Of a DNA stretch of 64,000 nt, positions 25,352 to 57,501 are shown one piece after another (position 1 is the first letter of the stretch; every line of letters starts with the position of its first letter). Position numbers and translations under genes: made by a program. The DNA comes from Candidatus Nanohaloarchaea archaeon (lineage in GTDB: Archaea; Nanohalarchaeota; Nanosalinia; Nanosalinales; Nanosalinaceae). The notes under the pieces are model-generated. The model worked only from the letters and a program-made list of their open reading frames with translations, had not been told where the DNA came from and made no database searches. The DNA lies in assembly GCA_042218325.1 (NCBI GenBank), contig JBDGRE010000001.1, positions 68,356 to 132,355 on the forward strand, read 5' to 3'.

Positions 25352-26316
25352 TCTATATCTACCTCGTCAGGCCTCCAGTTCGGTTTCTTCCCCGATTCCT
25401 CGACGGAGGTTTTCCGGCCCGCTTCGAGTTCGAGCATGCCCTGGTGCGCTATCATCGCGCCGTTGTCCATGCAGTAATCGGGCGGCGGGAAGTACGCCTC
25501 GCAACCTCTTTGCTCGCACATCGCCTCCACCATCTCGCGCAGCCTGGAGTTCATCGCGACGCCGCCCGTTAAAAGCGCCTCCCGGGAGCCTTCCTGCGCC
25601 ATCGCCCTCTCCAGGGCCTCGACCACCGCGGCGTAAGCGTGCTCCTGGAACGAGTTGGCTATCAAAGCGTCATCGATTTCGTCGACCTTGCGCTCGCCTT
25701 CTGTTACCAGCCCGGAGAAAGAGAAGTCCATCCCCTTGATAGGGTAGCTGAGTTCGACTATCCCGTCCGTCTTCTCGGCGAGTCTCTCGATTTCGGGGCC
25801 TCCCGGATGCGGGTAGCCGAGCTTCCGCGCCAGCTTGTCGAGCGCGTTACCCAGCGCGATATCCAGGGTCTCCCCGATTATGCGGTAACGACCGGAGCGC
25901 AGCTCAAGTATCTGCGAGTTGCCGCCGGACAGGTACAGTGTGGTCGGTTCCTCCGCACCGGTGGTCCTCGTCCCGATCGAGATGTGTGCAAGGCAGTGGT
26001 TCATACCGATGAGCTCCAGGTCGTACCGTTCGGAAAGCGCACGGGCGATAACCGCCCCGATATCGAGGCACTGCGGTATACCCGGGCCCTGCGCAAAGGC
26101 CACCGCGTCGAGCTCCTCTTCATCTAGGTCTGCCTCCTGCAGTGCGTTGTTCAGGACCTCGAGAGCATGTTGATAGTGGTGCTCCGCCGCCTTCCTCGGG
26201 TGTATCCCGCCCTCCTCCGGCTCGAACATCGACTTCTGGTTTGCAAGTATATCATCTTCGTCGACTATACCGATGCCAAGCGTGTGCGCTGTCGACTCGA
26301 TGCCGAGCACTTTCAT
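25342..26316 (-). CDS. kae1: t6A synthase Kae1 (KEOPS)
   Basis: GIESTAHT, GGIHP, NHCLAH, SGGN, GETLDIALGN, GGVAMN, DNGAMIA. Confidence 0.95.
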   Translation of the reverse strand: MKVLGIESTAHTLGIGIVDEDDILANQKSMFEPEEGGIHPRKAAEHHYQHALEVLNNALQEADLDEEELDAVAFAQGPGIPQCLDIGAVIARALSERYDLELIGMNHCLAHISIGTRTTGAEEPTTLYLSGGNSQILELRSGRYRIIGETLDIALGNALDKLARKLGYPHPGGPEIERLAEKTDGIVELSYPIKGMDFSFSGLVTEGERKVDEIDDALIANSFQEHAYAAVVEALERAMAQEGSREALLTGGVAMNSRLREMVEAMCEQRGCEAYFPPPDYCMDNGAMIAHQGMLELEAGRKTSVEESGKKPNWRPDEVDIEWK

Positions 26317-26352
26317 GCGTGGAGTTAGCTGCTGAAGAATTAAAAGAGAATT

Positions 26353-26502
26353 CTATCCGTGCTTGGTGTAGCCGCACTTGCCGCACGACTTGCGTTCGTC
26401 GTGCTCCGCCAGGAAGCTTCCGCAGCGGGGGCATTTCTCGCCGTCGTATTCTCCTGACTCGTCGTACTTCTCCCAGATCTGTACCTTGTCGTGCTTACTC
26501 AC
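26353..26502 (-). CDS. rps27ae: 30S ribosomal protein S27ae (eS31), 49 aa, absent from ORF track
   Basis: GTG start; [23 protein letters not shown] zinc ribbon. Confidence 0.92.
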
Positions 26503-26554
26503 GGCTACCACCTGTGGTTGGCGTGTCAAGAAGATCTCTGATCTTTGCCATCAT
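26495..26554 (-). CDS. Putative 19-aa bridge ORF between rps3 and rps27ae
   Basis: ATGA overlap with rps3 stop, GTGAGTAA overlap with rps27ae start; [19 protein letters not shown]. Confidence 0.45.
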
Positions 26555-27657
26555 TCTTCAACCCTCGTTTCCAGCCAGTCGATGAACGTCGTCCGGCTCT
26601 TGTTGTCCTTTTCAGCTTTGAGGGCTTTCTCCCAGTCAGGGTTTTCGAGGTCTTCCAGCTCGTCCTTCGCATCGGCGATAGTGCCGGAGACTATCTCTTC
26701 GTAGTCCGCTTCAGTTCCGCCTTCTGATCCCTCGGCGTCGTCCTCCACTGCTTCCTCGTCGATTCCCGACTCGGACTCGGTGGATTCCTTTTCTACGTCT
26801 TCGGGGACTTCTTCATCCTCCTCGTTTTCTTCAGCTTCCTGTTCTTCCTTGGCCTCTTCTTCTGCGGCTTCCTTTATCTCTTCGCCGCGCTCCTCGAACA
26901 CGTCGCGGATCTCCTGCTTGGTGATATCTTCTGTTTCGACCTCGAGCTCTTCCATTGCCTCGTCGATGGCGGAGGAGGTCATGCTTTCGGCCTCCGCGAC
27001 CACCATCTCGAGTCTCTCGTCTCTTGGAAGTGAGTCCTCGTGCTCGACTGTCTTGTGGAGTATCTCTTCCTCTACGTCGACGTCGCGGTGCTTGAATTCG
27101 GGCAAGGATTCCATGATGCGGACCTTGACACCGATAGCGCCCGGCTTGGTTCTCGCAAGTTCGTAGGCCTCCTTGACGTTTTCCTTCGATGTGTTGCCGT
27201 TTCGCTTGACGTACCCGTACGAGAACTTCTCCGTCCTTCCACGGTTTCCTGAGAGCTTGCCGGCTACCTCTATCTCGGCGCCGATGACTCCGGCTTCCTT
27301 CACCCTTCGCAGGTAGGTGTAACCGACACGTTTCGGCTGTCCTCCCTTCTCGAGCCAGTCAGCCATCGACTTCGCGACGACTTCCGCGTCTGCGTCGGCG
27401 TTCTCTATCTCGTTTACCTCTATCTGCGGGTTCTCGAATCCGAACTCTGCCTCCATGTCCTCTGTGAGTTCACGGATGCGTGAGCCGCCTCGACCGATTA
27501 CAAGTCCTGGTCTCTGTGCGTATACAACTATCTTCGTCGAGGTCGGTGTCCTTACAAGCTCGCACCGCGAGTAGCCTGCTCCCTCGAGCTCTTCCTCGAA
27601 GAACTCGTGCAGCCTTACCTTCCGGGCTCCTTTCTCGACGAACTGTTTCTCCTGCAT
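26551..27657 (-). CDS. rps3: 30S ribosomal protein S3 (uS3) with long acidic C-terminal extension
   Basis: KH domain RPGLVIGRGGSRIREL, GAEIEVAGKL, GAIGVKVRI. Confidence 0.95.
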   Translation of the reverse strand: MQEKQFVEKGARKVRLHEFFEEELEGAGYSRCELVRTPTSTKIVVYAQRPGLVIGRGGSRIRELTEDMEAEFGFENPQIEVNEIENADADAEVVAKSMADWLEKGGQPKRVGYTYLRRVKEAGVIGAEIEVAGKLSGNRGRTEKFSYGYVKRNGNTSKENVKEAYELARTKPGAIGVKVRIMESLPEFKHRDVDVEEEILHKTVEHEDSLPRDERLEMVVAEAESMTSSAIDEAMEELEVETEDITKQEIRDVFEERGEEIKEAAEEEAKEEQEAEENEEDEEVPEDVEKESTESESGIDEEAVEDDAEGSEGGTEADYEEIVSGTIADAKDELEDLENPDWEKALKAEKDNKSRTTFIDWLETRVEE

Positions 27658-27746
27658 GAAACTTCTGGAAGTTTCATCACCATAGCACGTCCAGCCTGAC
27701 GGCTGAACGCACTCCGGTTTTAAGTTGGTTTTTATTTCCTGCCATA

Positions 27747-28160
27747 TTATCTCTCTCCCACGACAATCTTTACATGTGCTGCTTTGATGGTTTCTCCCCT
27801 GTGTCTTCCTGGGGTCCTGAACTCTTGGCCCTGGTTGGTTATGAACTTCTGGATTTCCAGCGCGTCAGTATTGAGTCCCTGGTCCTCTGCGTTGGACGCA
27901 GCGCTCCTGATTACTTTCAGTACTTCTTCCGCGGCTTTGACCGGGTAGCGGCCCTCCTGTCCGCCGCTCCTGTGTCCGGCTCCGGAGAACGTCGTGTATG
28001 GTACGGGAAGTTCTTTTTCAATCACTCTTTCCAGCTTGTTCTCCGCCTTCTCGACGGAGTCGCCCTTGACGAAGCGGCCTATCTCGGTCACGTCCTTCCA
28101 CGAAACGCGGAGGTCGTTGCCTATGGCTTTGGCCTGGTGTGGCTCCGTCTCGATAGGCAC
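27747..28160 (-). CDS. rpl22: 50S ribosomal protein L22
   Basis: LRVSWK, GRYPVKAA, SNAEDQGL. Confidence 0.92.
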   Translation of the reverse strand: MPIETEPHQAKAIGNDLRVSWKDVTEIGRFVKGDSVEKAENKLERVIEKELPVPYTTFSGAGHRSGGQEGRYPVKAAEEVLKVIRSAASNAEDQGLNTDALEIQKFITNQGQEFRTPGRHRGETIKAAHVKIVVGER

Positions 28161-28166
28161 GCTAAA

Positions 28167-28547
28167 TCACTTGAGCGGCACGTGCTGCGAGGACCGGGTA
28201 GCTCCGAGCCCTGGTGCACTGTGCGATACTTCCTTTCTGGTTTTTGCTAGTTCGCCGAGGTAGTGTCCGAGCATCTCTTTCTCGATATCTACCGGGACGA
28301 AATCCTTGCCGTTGTATACCTGGACGGTCTTGCCGACCATCTTCGGCACTACGATCATCGACCTCATGTGGGTCTTGACCTGGTCTTTCTCCTCGAGGTC
28401 TTCCAGTATCTTTTTCTCCTTTCTTCTCAGTCCGCGCTGTATCTTTCTCCTGCCTCTTGAGTTGAGCAGCTCCGAGAACTCTTCCAGACTCATCTCTTTC
28501 AGCTCTTCAAGGCTGTGTCCGCGGAAGCTCCAGTCGTCGTCACTCAC
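28167..28547 (-). CDS. rps19: 30S ribosomal protein S19
   Basis: FRGHSLEEL, KTHMRSMIVVP, YNGK, MLGHYLGE, GATRSS. Confidence 0.95.
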   Translation of the reverse strand: MSDDDWSFRGHSLEELKEMSLEEFSELLNSRGRRKIQRGLRRKEKKILEDLEEKDQVKTHMRSMIVVPKMVGKTVQVYNGKDFVPVDIEKEMLGHYLGELAKTRKEVSHSAPGLGATRSSQHVPLK

Positions 28548-28603
28548 TCGAAAACACCTCTGGCGTTTTCTGCGAGATTAGAAAATCTTCGATTTTCACT
28601 CAT
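28544..28603 (-). repeat. 60-nt two-hairpin element / 19-aa mini-ORF, copy 1 (rpl2-rps19 junction)
   Basis: ATGAGTGAAAATCGAAGATTTTCTAATCTCGCAGAAAACGCCAGAGGTGTTTTCGAGTGA = MSENRRFSNLAENARGVFE*. Confidence 0.75.
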
Positions 28604-29312
28604 TGTCTGCTGTTCCCTCCTTGTTTCCTGATTTTCGTGCCGCGATGGAGCCTACCTTGCTACCAGGCGAGGCATGCCTCGAGACAGTTTTCGGCTGACC
28701 TGGTTTTGCGGAACCACCGAACGGGTGGTCGACCGCGTTCATGGCGACCGCACGGACGTTCGGGTATTTGTGGCCCTTCGCCTTCATGGCCTTGTGCTTG
28801 TTGCCGGCCTTCACGAACGGCTTGTCCTTTCTTCCGCCGCCCGCGACCTTTCCTACAGTGGCGCGGCATCCTGTATCCAGTTTTTTGAACTCTCCGCTCG
28901 GAAGCTTGATTCTCACGCCGTCCTGCTCGTGGGTCACGACGAAAGCGTAGGTGCCGGATGAACGGACGAGCTGCCCGCCGCTGCTTGGCTGGGTCTCGAT
29001 GTTATGAATCGGGACACCCTCCGGGATCTCTCCTACAGGAAGAACGTTGCCCTCCTCGATTTCCGCGGAGACACCTACCTCTATGGTGTCGCCGACCTGG
29101 AGGTTCTCCGGCGCCAGAACGTTACGTACCTCTTCATCGTCGAAATCGACGACCGCTACCGGTGCGCTTCTCGCAGGGTCGTGTACTATATCTATCACTT
29201 CGCCCGTCGTCTCTGCGTTCCTGTGCTCTACGTCTCCTTTCCCGTGGTGGGAGTTAGCTGTCCACGTGGAGCTTGCTTTTCCTCTTCTCTGCTGTCTCAG
29301 TGGGCTTCCCAT
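28596..29312 (-). CDS. rpl2: 50S ribosomal protein L2
   Basis: QRRGK, HDPARSAPVA, VRAVAMNAVDHPFGG. Confidence 0.96.
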   Translation of the reverse strand: MGSPLRQQRRGKASSTWTANSHHGKGDVEHRNAETTGEVIDIVHDPARSAPVAVVDFDDEEVRNVLAPENLQVGDTIEVGVSAEIEEGNVLPVGEIPEGVPIHNIETQPSSGGQLVRSSGTYAFVVTHEQDGVRIKLPSGEFKKLDTGCRATVGKVAGGGRKDKPFVKAGNKHKAMKAKGHKYPNVRAVAMNAVDHPFGGSAKPGQPKTVSRHASPGSKVGSIAARKSGNKEGTADNE

Positions 29313-29321
29313 CTTATCACT

Positions 29322-29594
29322 TTAAATCATTCCGAGCTTGGTCGCGACATCCATCGCGTCGTCAGCTTCGGATAGACTAACGAAGGCCTTTTTCTTGGCC
29401 TGTGGTGTTACCATGGTGTTTACTTTTTTAACCTCTACATCGAACAGCGTCTCCACCGCGTCCTGCACCTGGTTCTTGTTCGCGTCGATGTCGACCATCA
29501 GCACGAGCTGGTTGTGCTCGTCGACCTTGTCCATCGACTTCTCCGTCAGGTGCGGGTTCTCGATTATCTCCCAGGCTCTTTCTTCTTCCATCAT
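29322..29594 (-). CDS. rpl23: 50S ribosomal protein L23
   Basis: PHLTEKSM, VETLFDVEVKKVNT, KKAFV; start at ATG 29594 after GAGGTG. Confidence 0.93.
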   Translation of the reverse strand: MMEEERAWEIIENPHLTEKSMDKVDEHNQLVLMVDIDANKNQVQDAVETLFDVEVKKVNTMVTPQAKKKAFVSLSEADDAMDVATKLGMI

Positions 29595-29601
29595 CGCCAC
29601 C

Positions 29602-30360
29602 TCAGTCGAGGAAGAGCTCCTCTTCCTCAAGTCTTTCCAGTGCGTCCTCGCTCCAGACCACAAGCCGTCCTGGCTGTGCACCTGGTGCGAGAAGCTCTGC
29701 GTTAAGGTTTTCGACTCTTGCAACTTCTACACCAGCGAGGTTGCTGGCTGCGTCGACCGCGTTGCTTTCGCCGGAGACGACCAGTAGCGGCCCTACCTTC
29801 CGGCGGTACTTCCGGCCGCGGTTCGCTCCTCTTCCGGCACGAATCTTCTTCTCCTTTACTCTCTCGAGCTCGTCTTCGAGGCCGAGCTCCTCGAGCCTAT
29901 CTTTCAGCTCCGTGGTCTTCTCTATCTCCTCGAGGTCGTCGACGAGCGGTAGCTCGCCGTCGTAATCGTGATTTTCGCTGACGAACTTTTCGTGGTTCGA
30001 GGCCGCGATGCCCGACCTGATGGCCTTGCGTCGCTCCTTGTCGTTTATCTCTTCTGTCCAGTCCTTGTCGCTGTCAGGGCCGTGCGCCCTTCTACCGCCC
30101 CGCGTATTCGGGGCCTCTGCGCCCTCCCCGAGCAGTTGCGAGCCGCGGCCCATCATGATCTTCCTCGGGGTCCGGGACTGTCCGCGGCCTTTCTGCGAGC
30201 GGTACGCGTTGTTCCGCTTCTTCCAGCGGGTGACATGCTTCAGGCCCGCTTCTTTGTCGTTCCCGTACGCCTGCCTGTTCTTGGATTGAATCGACAGGAC
30301 GGCGCGCTTCATGATGTCGGGGCGGACACGTTCGTCGAACTGTACCGGTAGGTCTGTCAC
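29602..30360 (-). CDS. rpl4: 50S ribosomal protein L4
   Basis: RPDIMKRAV, GGRRAH, INDKERRKAIRS, LAPGAQPGRL. Confidence 0.95.
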   Translation of the reverse strand: MTDLPVQFDERVRPDIMKRAVLSIQSKNRQAYGNDKEAGLKHVTRWKKRNNAYRSQKGRGQSRTPRKIMMGRGSQLLGEGAEAPNTRGGRRAHGPDSDKDWTEEINDKERRKAIRSGIAASNHEKFVSENHDYDGELPLVDDLEEIEKTTELKDRLEELGLEDELERVKEKKIRAGRGANRGRKYRRKVGPLLVVSGESNAVDAASNLAGVEVARVENLNAELLAPGAQPGRLVVWSEDALERLEEEELFLD

Positions 30361-30416
30361 TCGAAAACACCTCGGGTGTTTTCTACGTGTGCTGAAAATC
30401 TTGTATTTTCGCTCAT
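30357..30416 (-). repeat. 60-nt two-hairpin element / 19-aa mini-ORF, copy 2 (rpl3-rpl4 junction)
   Basis: ATGAGCGAAAATACAAGATTTTCAGCACACGTAGAAAACACCCGAGGTGTTTTCGAGTGA = MSENTRFSAHVENTRGVFE*. Confidence 0.75.
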
Positions 30417-30423
30417 TTGTTAA

Positions 30424-31392
30424 TCACTTCTCGATGTGTGTTATCTCTGGTTCTCCTGGTTTTTCGTCCTTTCTCAGTGCGGTTCGCAGCCGGACGAGTC
30501 TCTCCGCCGGCCCGGGAACCGAGCCCTTGACGAGTATGTAGTTGGACTTGACTTCGCCGTAGTTCTTGAAGCCTCCCTCGCGCTGGACTTGCTCCGCGTC
30601 TCCGTGGTCAAGTATGCGCTTGTTCAGCTCCGTACGGTTGTTATAACCCTGCTGGCCTGGAAGAGGAACCTTCCACGAGAGCTTGTCAGGGTGCCACGGG
30701 CCGACGTTTCCGGCCTTTCTCCGCTTCTTCTGCGTCTTGTGGCCCAGCTTCCTGATACCGTAGCGCTTTACCGGGCCCTCCACGCCTTTACCTTTCGAGA
30801 CAGCGACTACGTCGCTGTACTCTCCGGGCTCGAAGACGTCGTTGAACTCGATTTCCTTTCCGATCATCTCTTCAGCGTACTCAAGCTGCTCCTCGACTTC
30901 GCCGCCCATCGCCACCTCGAAGTTGGCGGGTTTCTTCTTGCTGAGCCCCGCGCGCTGTGGCTGGGTGTGGACGAGAAGCCGGACTTCCGAAAGCTCGTCG
31001 CTTATCTCTTTGGCGTCCTCGAAGTTATCCATGTTGCCCTCCTTCGGAACGTCGGTGGCTCTTTGAAGTTCCTTCGAGGGCGAATCGGTCCACGCCTCGG
31101 TGAAGACCTGCTTGCCTGAGTTGAGGTCCTCAGTGTAGAAACGCGCGCCGTAAACTCGTAGCGGCGGCGCTTCGAGTATCGTTACCGGTGTCGCCTTCTC
31201 CCGGCCCTCGGTCGCGCCCTCGGTGTCGTCTATCATCAGGACACGGGTCATGCCGACCTTATATCCCCCGAAACCAAGAGGTTTCAACTCGTCGGTCTCC
31301 TCCCATGTATCTATCTCTGGGTAGATCTTCTGCGCTCTTACCTTGGGCTTGAACCCGAGCGAACCGCTTCTTGGTCTGTTAACGTCTGACAT
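30424..31392 (-). CDS. rpl3: 50S ribosomal protein L3
   Basis: PRSGSLGF, GYKVGMT, KGKG..GPVKRYG, GPWHP, KGSVPGP; start at ATG 31392 after GGAGGAG. Confidence 0.96.
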   Translation of the reverse strand: MSDVNRPRSGSLGFKPKVRAQKIYPEIDTWEETDELKPLGFGGYKVGMTRVLMIDDTEGATEGREKATPVTILEAPPLRVYGARFYTEDLNSGKQVFTEAWTDSPSKELQRATDVPKEGNMDNFEDAKEISDELSEVRLLVHTQPQRAGLSKKKPANFEVAMGGEVEEQLEYAEEMIGKEIEFNDVFEPGEYSDVVAVSKGKGVEGPVKRYGIRKLGHKTQKKRRKAGNVGPWHPDKLSWKVPLPGQQGYNNRTELNKRILDHGDAEQVQREGGFKNYGEVKSNYILVKGSVPGPAERLVRLRTALRKDEKPGEPEITHIEK

Positions 31393-31606
31393 ACTGTTAT
31401 CTCCTCCTTTACCTGTTCCAGAGGCCTCGACTGAGGCTTGTCCACCTGACAAATTCGAAACTCCCTTCAGGAGTTTCTGCGAACCCGCAGCTTGATGTTC
31501 CGGGTAGGGTGGTAACTCATCGGTCACAGACAAATCTTATAAATGGGTCGAAGACGCTGTTCCCGTTCCTTCCCTCGGCGCTCTTTTATTCGTCAGGTCC
31601 ACAGGT

Positions 31607-32467
31607 ATGCGTATGCTAAAGGCGGAAAACCTGTCGAAGAGCTACGGTGAAACCCGGGCGGTACAAGACCTCAGTTTCCAGGTCGAGAAGGGAGAGATAG
31701 TCGGTCTTATCGGCCCGAACGGTGCAGGCAAGTCGACCACGATGGAGATGTGTGCCGGGCTGCTGCAGCCGGACTCCGGCCGGGTAAAGGCGGAAAGCAG
31801 CCTGAAACAGTGCGTCGGGATCGTATTTCAGTCGCTCGAGATGCGGCCCAAGATAACCGTCGAGGAGTTCCTAGGGCTGATGAAAACGCTGAACAGCTCC
31901 GGCGCCGATATACAGGAAGCGTTGCGGGACGTAGCCCTTGATGAGAGCGATGCATGGGTCGAGGAGCTTTCCGGCGGCCAGAAAAAGAAGCTGAACATCG
32001 CGTCCGCTCTCGTCAAACAGCCCGACTACCTGCTGCTTGACGAGTCTGCCGCGGGCCTGGACGTCCAGAGCCGGACCGCTCTCGAGGCCGTTATCGAAGA
32101 GCTCGGTGAGGAACACGGCGTTCTCCTGAGCACGCACTCGATGGAGATAGCGGAAAGACTGTGCGACCGCGTAGTTATACTCCGCGACGGCAAGAAGATC
32201 GTCGAGGGCGGGATGGACGAACTGCTGGATGGTATAGACGCGCAGTATGTGGTAAGCGGAGAAGGCGAGGTACCTCAAAGTTACATAGAAAACGCGCGCG
32301 TGAGTGGAGACTACTTCGAGATATTTTGCGACAGGCCGCACGAGGTGCTGAAACACATGGTCGAAACGGGGAAAATCGAGGGAATCGACGATATAGCGGT
32401 CGACAGGCCGGGCCTTGAGGAGGTCTATCTCGACGCGACGGGTGAGCGTTATGAGGAAAGTAGCTGA
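31607..32467 (+). CDS. ABC transporter ATP-binding protein (multidrug/ABC-2 type)
   Basis: GPNGAGKST, LSGGQ, LLLDE, STH. Confidence 0.9.
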   Translation: MRMLKAENLSKSYGETRAVQDLSFQVEKGEIVGLIGPNGAGKSTTMEMCAGLLQPDSGRVKAESSLKQCVGIVFQSLEMRPKITVEEFLGLMKTLNSSGADIQEALRDVALDESDAWVEELSGGQKKKLNIASALVKQPDYLLLDESAAGLDVQSRTALEAVIEELGEEHGVLLSTHSMEIAERLCDRVVILRDGKKIVEGGMDELLDGIDAQYVVSGEGEVPQSYIENARVSGDYFEIFCDRPHEVLKHMVETGKIEGIDDIAVDRPGLEEVYLDATGERYEESS

Positions 32468-33185
32468 GCTTCTGAAGATTTACTTCATGAACAAGCTGCG
32501 CCGACCTTTAACCGTGGCTATGTCGCTTCTCTGGGCGCTGGCGTTCTTCGTTTTCCTTTACTTCGTCTTCGAGACAGGCGGCCTCAGCTTCGGGAAAGAA
32601 GGCTTCTCGAACTCTTTCGTCGCCTCATACCTCGTCTTCGTACCCGCGTACATAGGCGTATTCGGGGTCCTCCATGGTGTGCTTGAGGACAGCGATTCGG
32701 GGCTGCTCAAGGCGTACCGGGGCACACGGATGGAGAAGTACGAGTACTTCACCGCCAAGATCGCCGCTTCCTCAGTCTCCGGCCTCGCGGTCGCGGCGCT
32801 CATACTCGGCCTGGCATCGTACCTCTCCCCGGTAACGGTCAGCCTTCCACTCGCCTTCATGGCTGTGCTCGCCACGGTTGTCGCTCATTCCGGCATCGCT
32901 CTCGTAACCGCGTCACTGTCGAAGGATACGCAGGAATCCCGGATGGTGGTGCAGACATTCGTGATAGTACTCATCGCCGGCACACCTGTTTTCTACCCGG
33001 AGACTCTTCTTCCCGGGTCTGTGAGGATATTGCAGCAGCTGATACCACTGACGCACAGCATAGAGCTTTCAAGGGCGCTGGTGCAGCAGCAGGCGACAGC
33101 AGGATTCATAATCGAGAAAACAGCGGTGCTCGTAGGCTTCTCAGCGGTCCTGATAGGCGCCGCCTATCGAAGGTTCGATTTCTAG
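32451..33185 (+). CDS. ABC-2 type permease
   Basis: Six TM helices, PVFYP..LP...IPLTH. Confidence 0.85.
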   Translation: MRKVAELLKIYFMNKLRRPLTVAMSLLWALAFFVFLYFVFETGGLSFGKEGFSNSFVASYLVFVPAYIGVFGVLHGVLEDSDSGLLKAYRGTRMEKYEYFTAKIAASSVSGLAVAALILGLASYLSPVTVSLPLAFMAVLATVVAHSGIALVTASLSKDTQESRMVVQTFVIVLIAGTPVFYPETLLPGSVRILQQLIPLTHSIELSRALVQQQATAGFIIEKTAVLVGFSAVLIGAAYRRFDF

Positions 33186-37477: not shown

Positions 37478-37585
37478 GTTTTAGCGGCCTTCTTCCTCCT
37501 CTATCCATTCGGGTTCCGGCAGCGGCATATGCATCAGAGCGGTGTGGAAAGTGTTAAGCAGAACTGTAAGCGACCGCAAGGAAAG

Positions 37586-37748
37586 CGCCGGGGCTGGGAT
37601 TTGAACCCAGGAGGGCCGGTATGGCCCACCAGCTGGCTGGGTCGAAGCCGGCCTCGGGGATGAGGCGTCTTCTCCAACCTCCAACCCTCCGAGTTCGGGT
37701 AGAAGGTTTTCCAGGCTGGCACGTTCGTCCAGACTCCGTCACCCCGGC
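37586..37748 (-). tRNA. tRNA-Ser(GGA) with 74-nt intron (37635-37708) at 37/38
   Basis: CCAGC-CT-GGA-A|intron|A-GCTGG, long variable arm, G discriminator; BHB helix CTGG/CCAG with AAA and CCA bulges. Confidence 0.9.
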
Positions 37749-57369: not shown

Positions 57370-57501
57370 GGGTCCGTGGTCTAGTTGGTTATGACGTCGC
57401 CCTTACAGCTGGCGCACCGCGTGCGGAGCAGCGTTACTTTGACTCACACGCGAGGCGAGTGAGTCAGGCGAAGATCCCCAGTTCGAATCTGGGCGGACCC
57501 A
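57370..57501 (+). tRNA. tRNA-Val(TAC) with 58-nt intron (57408-57465) at 37/38
   Basis: TCGCC-CT-TAC-A|intron|A-GGCGA; BHB helix CTTA/TGAG; T arm CCCAG-TTCGAAT-CTGGG. Confidence 0.9.

Follow-up and report, generated by a model that had tools for sequence, protein, structure and literature searches.

Paired-hairpin cassettes on the start codons of ribosomal-protein and other genes in Nanohaloarchaeota, a probable case of translational relay

The ribosomal-protein operon and its two cassette copies

The DNA studied here, called the window throughout, is a 64-kb stretch of Candidatus Nanohaloarchaea archaeon on contig JBDGRE010000001.1, and positions are relative to it unless a contig or locus is named. 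Its minus strand carries a ribosomal-protein operon with the gene order L3, L4, L23, L2, S19, L22, S3, and two 60-nt elements, here termed cassettes, stand at the L2/S19 and L3/L4 junctions; each contains two hairpins and a 19-codon open reading frame (ORF; hereafter the mini-ORF) and ends in GTGA, exactly as an earlier reading made from the letters of this DNA (the sequence-only reading) had described. The genome to which the window belongs (G000) comprises 1.07 Mb in 35 contigs and is 96% complete, while G001 is a genome of the same genus; C numbers denote contigs of G000, G numbers genomes and L numbers fetched loci. Bit scores were obtained with a covariance model, R1 (alignment A2), which was built from the four full copies of the own genome and the E-values of which are rough. 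The two copies and their Shine-Dalgarno (SD) motifs are made up as follows.

28615..28620, minus strand: SD1, GGAGGG, of the ancestral S19 start, 11 nt before the mini-ORF ATG; the same upstream sequence is found at the empty site of L055
28544..28603, minus strand: cassette copy 1, at the L2/S19 junction, with its 19-codon mini-ORF from ATG (28603-28601) to TGA (28546-28544); R1 85.8 bits (a copy used in model building)
28581..28597, minus strand: copy 1 hairpin 1, GAAAATC, loop GAA, GATTTTC, from the fold; helix 97.1% paired across 82 copies
28571..28580, minus strand: copy 1 spacer, TAATCTCGCA, in which CTCGC (28576-28572) pairs with GTGAG (28547-28543) in the minimum-energy fold
28550..28570, minus strand: copy 1 hairpin 2, GAAAACGCC, AGA, GGTGTTTTC; contains SD2, GAGGTG (28560-28555), 7 nt before the GTG
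28545..28547, minus strand: GTG start of S19 (uS19 ORF 28547-28167), overlapped by the mini-ORF stop as GTGA, a spacing of -4
30357..30416, minus strand: cassette copy 2, at the L3/L4 junction, with its 19-codon mini-ORF from ATG (30416-30414) to TGA (30359-30357); R1 83.1 bits (a copy used in model building)
30394..30410, minus strand: copy 2 hairpin 1, GAAAAT(A), loop, (G)ATTTTC, from the fold
30387..30389, minus strand: CAC triplet of the copy 2 spacer; the minimum-energy fold pairs it with the GTG start codon
30363..30383, minus strand: copy 2 hairpin 2, GAAAACACC, CGA, GGTGTTTTC; SD2 GAGGTG at 30373-30368
30358..30360, minus strand: GTG start of L4 (uL4 ORF 30360-29602), overlapped by the mini-ORF stop

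The L2 stop codon TGA (28598-28596) overlaps the 5' edge of hairpin 1 in copy 1, and L3 stops at 30426-30424, upstream of copy 2. The two copies align without a gap over 60 nt between unrelated flanks, and two sub-patterns of the element have no match in the whole window outside these copies, with 0 matches expected from 100 shuffles; their proposed paralogy is borne out, both being members of one large family. They share an A/U-rich hairpin 1 (GAAAAUC/GAUUUUC) and hairpin 2 (GAAAACNCC/GGUGUUUUC), the folding z-scores of the 60-mers are -3.2 and -4.7 (1 and 0 of 200 shuffles fold equally well), and in both the spacer pairs with the GUG start when 86-nt stretches are folded to minimum energy. 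The mini-ORFs translate to MSENRRFSNLAENARGVFE in copy 1 and MSENTRFSAHVENTRGVFE in copy 2, and their TGA overlaps the GTG which opens the longest S19 ORF (28547) and likewise the L4 ORF (30360), so the GTGA end does supply a GTG start to both genes.

A family of cassettes in the phylum

Two more full copies were found by BLAST of the own genome, one before uS4 (C23) and one before S4e (C2), the latter with three consecutive base pairs of hairpin 2 altered on both sides. The own genome thereby holds four full copies as well as variants, and R1 matches it 17 times at E<=0.01 in a run over 41 genomes and 44 times at E<=10 in a run on this genome alone. Matches to R1 were obtained in 30 of the 41 genomes searched (G000 included) and, at E<=1e-5, in 44 of 70 genomes of the phylum, with at most 35 per genome at E<=0.01, so that the further copies looked for in the genome and its relatives turned out to form a large family. 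As far as searched, the cassette is specific to Nanohaloarchaeota. In Rfam the elements gave no match at E<=1 (window 26000-33000), while L002, L004, L005 and L006 gave tRNAs only, and a literature search on introns, repeats, leader peptides and Shine-Dalgarno sequences of Nanohaloarchaea, which did not extend to subscription-only papers, found no description of the cassette. A viral carrier was also considered and rejected, the one match of a degenerate pattern among viral contigs lying inside an SSB-like coding region without hairpins, i.e., a chance match.

For the comparisons below, 128 non-duplicate R1 matches were assembled from two listings of relatives' rows (52 and 71) and the 17 best own-genome rows; six of the 52 were removed (two of L065, L065 and L025 being one contig, and four overlapping ones on the opposite strand), as were six of the 71 (L095, the same place as L049:3439, and five on the opposite strand). 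A 5' ATG is present in 94 of these matches, a gene start at the 3' edge in 102 and both in 82, and the 82 constitute the analysis set. From 5' to 3', the common build consists of an SD-like motif, 5-10 nt, ATG with one or two codons, hairpin 1, a spacer, hairpin 2, GA and the gene start, with the consensus ATGAGYGAAAA at the 5' end of the cassette. Family-wide, hairpin 1 reads GAAAATC/loop/GATTTTC and hairpin 2 GAAAAYCAC/loop/GGTGRTTTTC, with a spacer such as CTGGACACGCA in between. SD1 is present in 65 of the 82 copies, and the upstream ORF ends no more than 30 nt from the mini-ORF ATG in 66; SD2, 7 nt before the gene start, is present in 81, a count which is partly circular for a reason given below.

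Hairpin covariation and masking of the gene start

Read through its loop and 3' arm, hairpin 2 gives (G)GAGGTGAT, which is complementary to the 3' end of 16S rRNA, ...GGATCACCTCC, taken from G001 since the own assembly is without a 16S gene. Because of this complementarity, hairpin 2 is best read as an internal anti-SD:SD duplex predicted to mask the downstream ribosome-binding site. Hairpins 1 and 2 are paired in 97.1% and 97.6% of cells among the 82 copies, with both-side changes in 14 of 16 hairpin pairs, or in 16 of 19 when the helix of the start codon is included, and the 19 pairs show 232 cells changed on both sides against 73.6 +/- 10 in shuffles, a value reached by 0 of 500, although related sequences inflate such figures. 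When only 50 distinct copies of relatives were taken, 97.6% of cells were paired and 15 of 16 pairs had changed on both sides; none of 500 shuffles reached any of these measures, and slid controls collapsed.

The gene start codon itself also appears to be masked, less regularly than the hairpins are paired, because the spacer triplet 5' of hairpin 2 covaries with it: the combinations CAC-GTG, CAT-ATG and CAC-ATG were counted 14, 12 and 5 times, and CAT-GTG not once. At pair 103-147, CG occurs 30 times, UA 25 times, UG once and other combinations 19 times, and the start-codon helix is paired in 70%. G-U pairs are rare in the stems, which may reflect selection for pairing at the DNA level or the amplification of a few sub-types. 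None of the masking of the SD by hairpin 2, the covariation of start codon and spacer, and the phylum-wide extent of the family figured in the sequence-only reading.

An alternative pairing of arm 2 with arm 3, of the kind used by ermC, was set aside: these arms are complementary in the window copies, but variants of hairpin 1 such as GAATCTA/GAGATTC (L020) are, by eye, unmatched in hairpin 2.

The mini-ORF and its overlap with the gene start

The first in-frame stop codon of the mini-ORF lies between -4 and +8 nt from the gene start in 71 of the 82 copies and between -13 and +8 nt in 78, while the control frames +1 and +2 end there in only 1 and 5 copies and contain an internal stop in 70 and 52. 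Stop and start overlap as RTGA (-4) in 33 copies and as TAATG (-1) in 14, are adjacent in 16 and are separated by a 1-nt gap in three. Mini-ORFs of the family are 15-20 codons long. Hairpin 1 is read in all three frames among copies (xENxRFS, TKIxDF or RKSKIF) with the frame restored before the stop; in L027, for example, a 1-nt loss near the 5' end is compensated by a 1-nt gain in the spacer. This comparison indicates that the open frame of the mini-ORF is under selection and that its peptide is not.

In Haloferax volcanii and Escherichia coli, overlaps of -4 and -1 have been reported to give termination-reinitiation coupling and to dominate among such pairs, whereas a distance of about 20 nt nearly abolishes coupling (available text of PMC6728339 and PMC10666635). 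In addition, the 'RNA unfolding' model, as set out in the accessible part of PMC12548453, holds that upstream translation relieves the masking of a downstream ribosome-binding site. The stop/start geometry of the cassette is that of coupling, which lends support to the earlier proposal that the elements are made harmless in this way.

The same proposal had listed an excisable RNA element among its alternatives; in such an element 56 nt would be cut from the mRNA, for instance by the tRNA-splicing endonuclease at a bulge-helix-bulge (BHB) motif, so that ATG-AGT-GAC is restored. Removal of 56 nt does restore the ancestral reading, introns composed of GAAA..TTTC hairpin modules of a similar kind are present in 26 of this genome's 43 aragorn tRNA calls, and the 59-nt D-loop insert of tRNA-Gly(GCC) combines a two-hairpin build with a BHB of 9/10 pairs. 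At the frame-restoring registers of the four mRNA copies, however, only 6-8 of 10 BHB pairs can form, a result equalled by 30-198 of 200 shuffles, whereas six of eight tRNA-intron controls show a perfect 4-bp central helix and 3-bp exon helix. Moreover, an intron needs neither an open frame (kept in 71/82), nor an internal SD (81/82), nor an overlap of stop and start, and the distance from the ATG to the gene start varies from 47 to 109 nt over all three classes modulo 3. Splicing of the mRNA copies was therefore discarded as a candidate, the BHB scan being no better than shuffles, and we consider an excisable element very improbable.

Genes downstream of the cassette

Among 75 downstream ORFs in relatives, 49 match ribosomal-protein Pfam families, a number that includes one S3 N-terminus with KH_2 only and two matches below the curated cut-off. 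Seven others encode initiation or elongation factors, SerRS or GatE, and five encode RpoB, Spt4 or exosome subunits of the RNase PH type; three are ATP-synthase subunits, five are a proteasome alpha subunit, DnaJ, topoisomerase VI A, an E1-beta-like enzyme and an HMA protein, and six are without a match. In the own genome, clear copies precede the genes of S19, L4, uS4, S4e, an RpoK-like protein and a zinc-ribbon protein, and variants with 3-4 hairpins stand in front of three genes, one of them IscU-like.

The strong bias to ribosomal-protein genes, together with the conserved single-stranded spacer between conserved hairpins, would suit an operator at which a ribosomal or other RNA-binding protein exerts autogenous feedback, with the mini-ORF as an incidental feature. 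Since the open frame is clearly selected, it is hardly incidental, and no Rfam family, ribosomal-protein leaders included, was found on the element within the range and threshold given above. In addition, the stem sequences vary freely, so that a specific binding site would need the spacer or the loops, and the cassette also precedes genes for DnaJ, ATP synthase, proteasome and topoisomerase VI. An operator is thus improbable in our judgement.

Presence, absence and age of the copies

The cassette occupies four of 20 readable L2/S19 junctions (those of the own genome, L049, L054 and L065; L062 is masked by N), while SD, ATG and S19 follow each other directly in 15 relatives and L057 has another upstream neighbour. 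The L3/L4 junction is occupied in three of 11 loci found and the S3 start in two of 15. At L4, the empty sites of eight relatives read ATG ACA GA. or similar, and at the three junctions together all 36 cassette-free cases with the usual upstream neighbour start with ATG. Empty sites of the form SD-ATG-gene confirm that the elements occupy the normal position of the start codon. Behind a cassette, in turn, the gene starts with GTG in 26 of 82 copies and with TTG in 7, and from this difference the old ATG appears now to open the mini-ORF, the start codon of the gene having come with the cassette.

An empty site of the expected kind was found in L055, which carries exactly ATGAGTGACGAC behind the same upstream GGAAACAAGGAGGGAACA. 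The TGAGTGA repeat noticed in copy 1 is real, and removal of 56 nt gives this same ATGAGTGACGAC, but target duplication is not a general feature: the two start codons are followed by no identical base in 44 of the 82 copies, by a single one in 25 and by a run of at least 3 in only four. The direct repeat is therefore not supported as a footprint of insertion. The repeat of copy 1 is a chance likeness of ATGAGTGAC to the consensus 5' end of the cassette.

Between the two genomes of the same genus, G000 and G001, the state differs at six of seven sites compared. The S19 site is occupied in both, L4 and S4e only in G000, and RpoB, L11 and aIF2-gamma only in G001, while the S4 site of G000 is matched by a remnant in G001 (L134:1478-1510, S13/S4 junction), which reads ATG CAC GGA CAA GGT GAT TTT GAG TGG TAA. 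This remnant is shorter by 33 nt in frame, with hairpin 1 and the 5' arm of hairpin 2 gone and ATG, SD2, GTG and TAA kept. At C7:12623 of G000, the cassette-free RpoB start is a GTG behind GTGAT where G001 has a cassette; this GTG could be the scar of a lost cassette, or unrelated.

Copies at orthologous sites are on average 73% identical (38 pairs), compared with 64% for copies at different sites within a genome (231 pairs) and 64% for other pairs. The highest identity within genomes is 87%, none being near-identical, and the four own copies are 77-82% alike and have their nearest neighbours in other genomes. A recent burst or concerted evolution was rejected, since copies of the same genome are no more alike than copies of different genomes. 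In the 38 orthologous pairs, 130 stem pairs differ: 84 have both bases changed and still pair, 17 have a change in one base, and in 29 one of the two copies is unpaired; if orthologous copies descend from single insertions, pairing would have been maintained in place. Because the copies are homologous, stand before dozens of genes and vary in occupancy among close relatives, start codons have probably gained or lost the cassette on many occasions.

Numerous copies that are homologous while their sites are not, and orthologous sites that are empty, are also what would be expected of a purely selfish DNA repeat of the MITE (miniature inverted-repeat transposable element), palindrome-associated transposable element (PATE) or repetitive extragenic palindromic (REP) type, whose hairpins would serve for recognition by a Y1 transposase of the IS200/IS605 or RAYT (REP-associated tyrosine transposase) type and in which the mini-ORF and SD would merely neutralise damage. 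Elements derived from IS200/IS605 have near-terminal hairpins and make no target duplication. In the cassette two hairpins lie near the ends and no regular target duplication was seen; its very few G-U stem pairs would be expected under DNA-level selection for pairing, and like hairpin modules occur in other tolerant places, i.e., tRNA introns, leaders and 3' regions. A fixed-length target-site duplication, the classical mark of a MITE, was not found in the 82 copies, and the arms CGAAAA/TTTTCG are inverted repeats but come from two separate hairpins. The Y1 family PF01797 had no match in the own genome, the only one searched and 96% complete (the control was positive in 6 of 14 reference genomes), and the TnpB zinc-ribbon family PF07282 gave a single sub-threshold match (C32:48927-49049, 17.3 bits against a cut-off of 26.3). 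Furthermore, the lack of near-identical copies within genomes fits poorly with such a repeat, selection for transposition does not explain pairing maintained at long-resident orthologous sites, and single-nucleotide precision at start codons would require an extraordinary choice of target. The only constant flank of the cassette is the start codon, which selection alone could explain. Taken on its own, the purely selfish repeat is unlikely in our estimate.

The same data bear on a device selected by the host, in which ribosomal and information genes would be made strictly dependent on upstream ribosome traffic, or in which the hairpins would sense a factor, temperature or salt, as in a translational regulon. 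The mechanics would be those of the relay described below; only the reason for the presence of the cassette differs, and the two are compatible. With 49 of 75 downstream genes being ribosomal and a further 12 related to translation, tRNA, transcription or the exosome, with hairpins 97% paired in copies only about 64% identical, and with conservation of hairpin 1 and the spacer, which a bare relay could do without, such a device is a serious possibility, if a somewhat unlikely one. The higher identity of orthologous copies points to long residence, and the preponderance of both-side changes (84/130, against 29 unpaired in one copy) to retention of pairing. Against it stand the patchy occupancy, including the six of seven sites that differ within the genus, the several near-complete genomes without any cassette and the S4 remnant of G001, which lacks both hairpins and is still in frame; the ribosomal enrichment, moreover, is a share of the 75 downstream genes and may just mirror the location of tightly coupled junctions.

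A translational relay

The explanation we favour, and hold to be probable, is that of a dispersed cassette of about 56-60 nt, gained and lost repeatedly, which is tolerated or used by means of a translational relay. The cassette lies between the ancestral ribosome-binding site with its ATG and the second codon of the gene, and brings two hairpins, an SD of its own, GAGGTGAT, and a new start (ATG, GTG or TTG) 7 nt further on. The SD is paired to the anti-SD-like 5' arm and the new start to the CAY triplet of the spacer, and an open frame runs from the old ATG through both hairpins to a stop on or next to the new start (RTGA, TAATG or TGAATG). A ribosome initiating at the old SD-ATG, or re-starting there after the upstream cistron, would translate the mini-ORF and melt the hairpin mask, and would then terminate on the new start and re-initiate there, aided by the freed SD. 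S19 and L4 would in this manner still be made in step with L2 and L3.

Comparison of sequences establishes the architecture, its conservation and its pattern of presence and absence, and this comparative evidence supports the coupling reading well. We infer that the mini-ORF is translated and that the gene depends on it. The position on start codons may result from active targeting, or from survival only at start codons.

Several observations weigh against the relay or against its generality. R1 found nothing in G016, G017 and G019, genomes of the same family that are 96-99% complete, and since some near-complete family genomes have no match, the cassette is evidently dispensable. A 5' ATG, a gene start or both are missing from 46 of the 128 matches, and a sub-type without ATG or SD occurs in leaders, tRNA introns and 3' regions. 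R1 was trained on copies with the ATG, the SD-bearing arm and GAGTGA, which makes the counts of ATG and SD2 partly circular, although this training bias does not touch the open frame, the control frames or the real downstream genes. The relay by itself leaves the conservation of hairpin 1 and the spacer unexplained. Finally, a transposase, a regular target duplication and near-identical copies were not found, so 'mobile' is a statement about distribution.

How the copies spread we infer from the same distribution. In a bolder version, which is speculative and quite doubtful, the cassette would be a still-active, transposase-less element homing to start codons, which spread either from one ribosome-binding site to another, through recombination or template switching, or along a route linked to RNA or the ribosome, and colonised the translation genes of the phylum, its resident copies being co-opted as masked-start switches that tie ribosomal-protein synthesis to ribosome traffic.

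Related hairpin modules

Similar hairpins were also observed in tRNA genes. Predicted introns of 12-143 nt are present in 26 of the 43 aragorn tRNA calls of G000, with a further 'intron' of 2886 nt being doubtful; examples are tRNA-Ser (window 37585-37748) and tRNA-Val (window 57370-57501). Many of these introns contain GAAA..TTTC modules, often with CCGAACT..AGTTCGA on the 5' side and GAGAAAACC..GGTTTTCGA on the 3' side, which are cassette-like but without SD. The sole tRNA-Gly(GCC) gene (G000:C16:5919-6050) has a 59-nt insert in its D-loop, flanked by the repeat GTGGCTAA, with an R1 match on the minus strand (C16:5972-6021); it contains two cassette-like hairpins and a BHB with central helix GGCU/GGCU and 9/10 pairs, and aragorn detects only the 3' part of the gene. 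This insert looks like a non-canonical tRNA intron. In L006:1470-1640 (G000:C31), the last ~24 nt of tRNA-Ala(GGC), CGGGTTCAAATCCCGGAGAGTCCA, recur about 70 nt downstream, beyond an intervening GAAAATC..GATTTTC hairpin, an arrangement that resembles the remnant of an attachment site or a half-tRNA.

Within the operon of the window, the listed L3 ORF has an N-terminal extension of ~47 codons (31451-31520, minus strand, upstream of L3), which is more likely a structured leader with a TATA-like TTTATAA, a 17-codon ORF and a hairpin GCAGAAACTCC..GGAGTTTCGA (covariance model E=0.004). In the closest relative, L3 is preceded by a pair of hairpins of this kind (L049:542-598 and 632-692), which belong to the sub-type without SD in the hairpin. 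The gap between L22 and S3 (27658-27766, minus strand) is ~90 nt here, compared with 5-15 nt in relatives, and contains a 22-codon ORF, MAGNKNQLKTGVRSAVRLDVLW, ending in GGTGATG, followed by a single hairpin, GAAACTTC/GAAGTTTC, which abuts the S3 ATG; this may represent a leader cassette of another kind, or one that has decayed.

As well, hairpin modules occur in 3' regions, for two GAAAA..TTTTC hairpins between the genes of a parvulin-type isomerase and S13 (L005:1480-1560, G000:C23:6125-6191) follow the isomerase stop on the gene strand in a terminator-like manner. A two-hairpin element in opposite orientation lies just 3' of a thermosome-like gene (L013, G000:C2:52691-52748), between two versions of the C-terminal tail and stop of that gene (..GGMPGGMM* and ..GGMGGMM*), as though insertion had duplicated the end of the gene.

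Comparison with known systems

The nearest described system is that of MIRUs, the interspersed repetitive units of mycobacteria (Supply et al. 1997, as reviewed), which, according to the accessible text of PMC12548453, seem to have start codons as their insertion sites and to carry an internal ORF whose coupling is at -4 nt. The likeness is one of architecture, i.e., a short multi-copy repeat on the start codon, in gene orientation and usually within an operon, whose internal ORF has a stop overlapping the start; homology of sequence is not to be expected between different domains of life. Unlike the MIRU, the nanohaloarchaeal cassette has two covarying hairpins, a masked internal SD and start and spacings of -4, -1 and 0; it is also strongly biased to ribosomal-protein genes, and tandem multiplication is occasional (the 3-4-hairpin variants).

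In the leader attenuation of ermC and cat, the leader stops short of the masking hairpin, and regulation works through ribosome stalling and alternative pairing. The cassette shares with these leaders a short ORF of ~19 codons, a set of four hairpin arms and a second hairpin that hides the gene's SD, but its ORF crosses both hairpins to the start, and hairpins 1 and 2 apparently do not covary with each other (by eye).

Archaeal termination-reinitiation pairs, as described in the available text of PMC6728339 (Huber et al. 2019) and PMC10666635 (2023), share the ATGA/TGATG geometry, very short distances and an SD inside the upstream ORF; in the cassette, by contrast, the upstream 'gene' is a repeat-borne ORF of 15-20 codons with an unconserved peptide, which stands between already coupled genes and thus puts two couplings in series. 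A sequestered downstream ribosome-binding site opened by upstream translation is common to rpmI-rplT and the coat and lysis genes of MS2, where the accessible part of PMC12548453 presents a gene-specific structure, whereas the cassette is a portable module before dozens of genes. The synthetic bicistronic design (BCD), which PMC12548453 mentions, has a short leader cistron in which the gene's SD lies and which finishes on the gene's start codon, so delivering the ribosome; it is used to remove effects of structure, while the cassette is natural and masks SD2 and the start. Rickettsia palindromic elements are likewise small palindromic repeats tolerated in coding and non-coding DNA of a reduced genome, but the available text of PMC1166351 has them translated in frame inside proteins, and the cassette stays outside the protein and relays initiation. 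Lastly, archaeal BHB introns of tRNA and a few mRNAs (PMC5829648, accessible text) are similar in size, and the tRNA introns of this genome consist of similar hairpin modules; no BHB was found at the mRNA copies of the cassette.

Implications

The phylum-wide cassette is a new variation on a known principle of coupling. S19, L4, S4 and S4e of this genome start at a GTG behind a 19-codon ORF, and gene callers will miss or mis-join such starts. More than 100 natural variants with compensatory changes are usable for comparing models of unfolding and of re-initiation in archaea. If the relay is true, archaea would here have their first counterpart of the MIRU principle, namely a repeat able to live on start codons by relaying ribosomes, and the cassette would also be a natural, hairpin-gated version of the synthetic bicistronic design. 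Moreover, the bias to ribosomal genes in symbiont genomes of ~1 Mb raises the question of whether ribosome synthesis in these archaea might be tuned via such relays.

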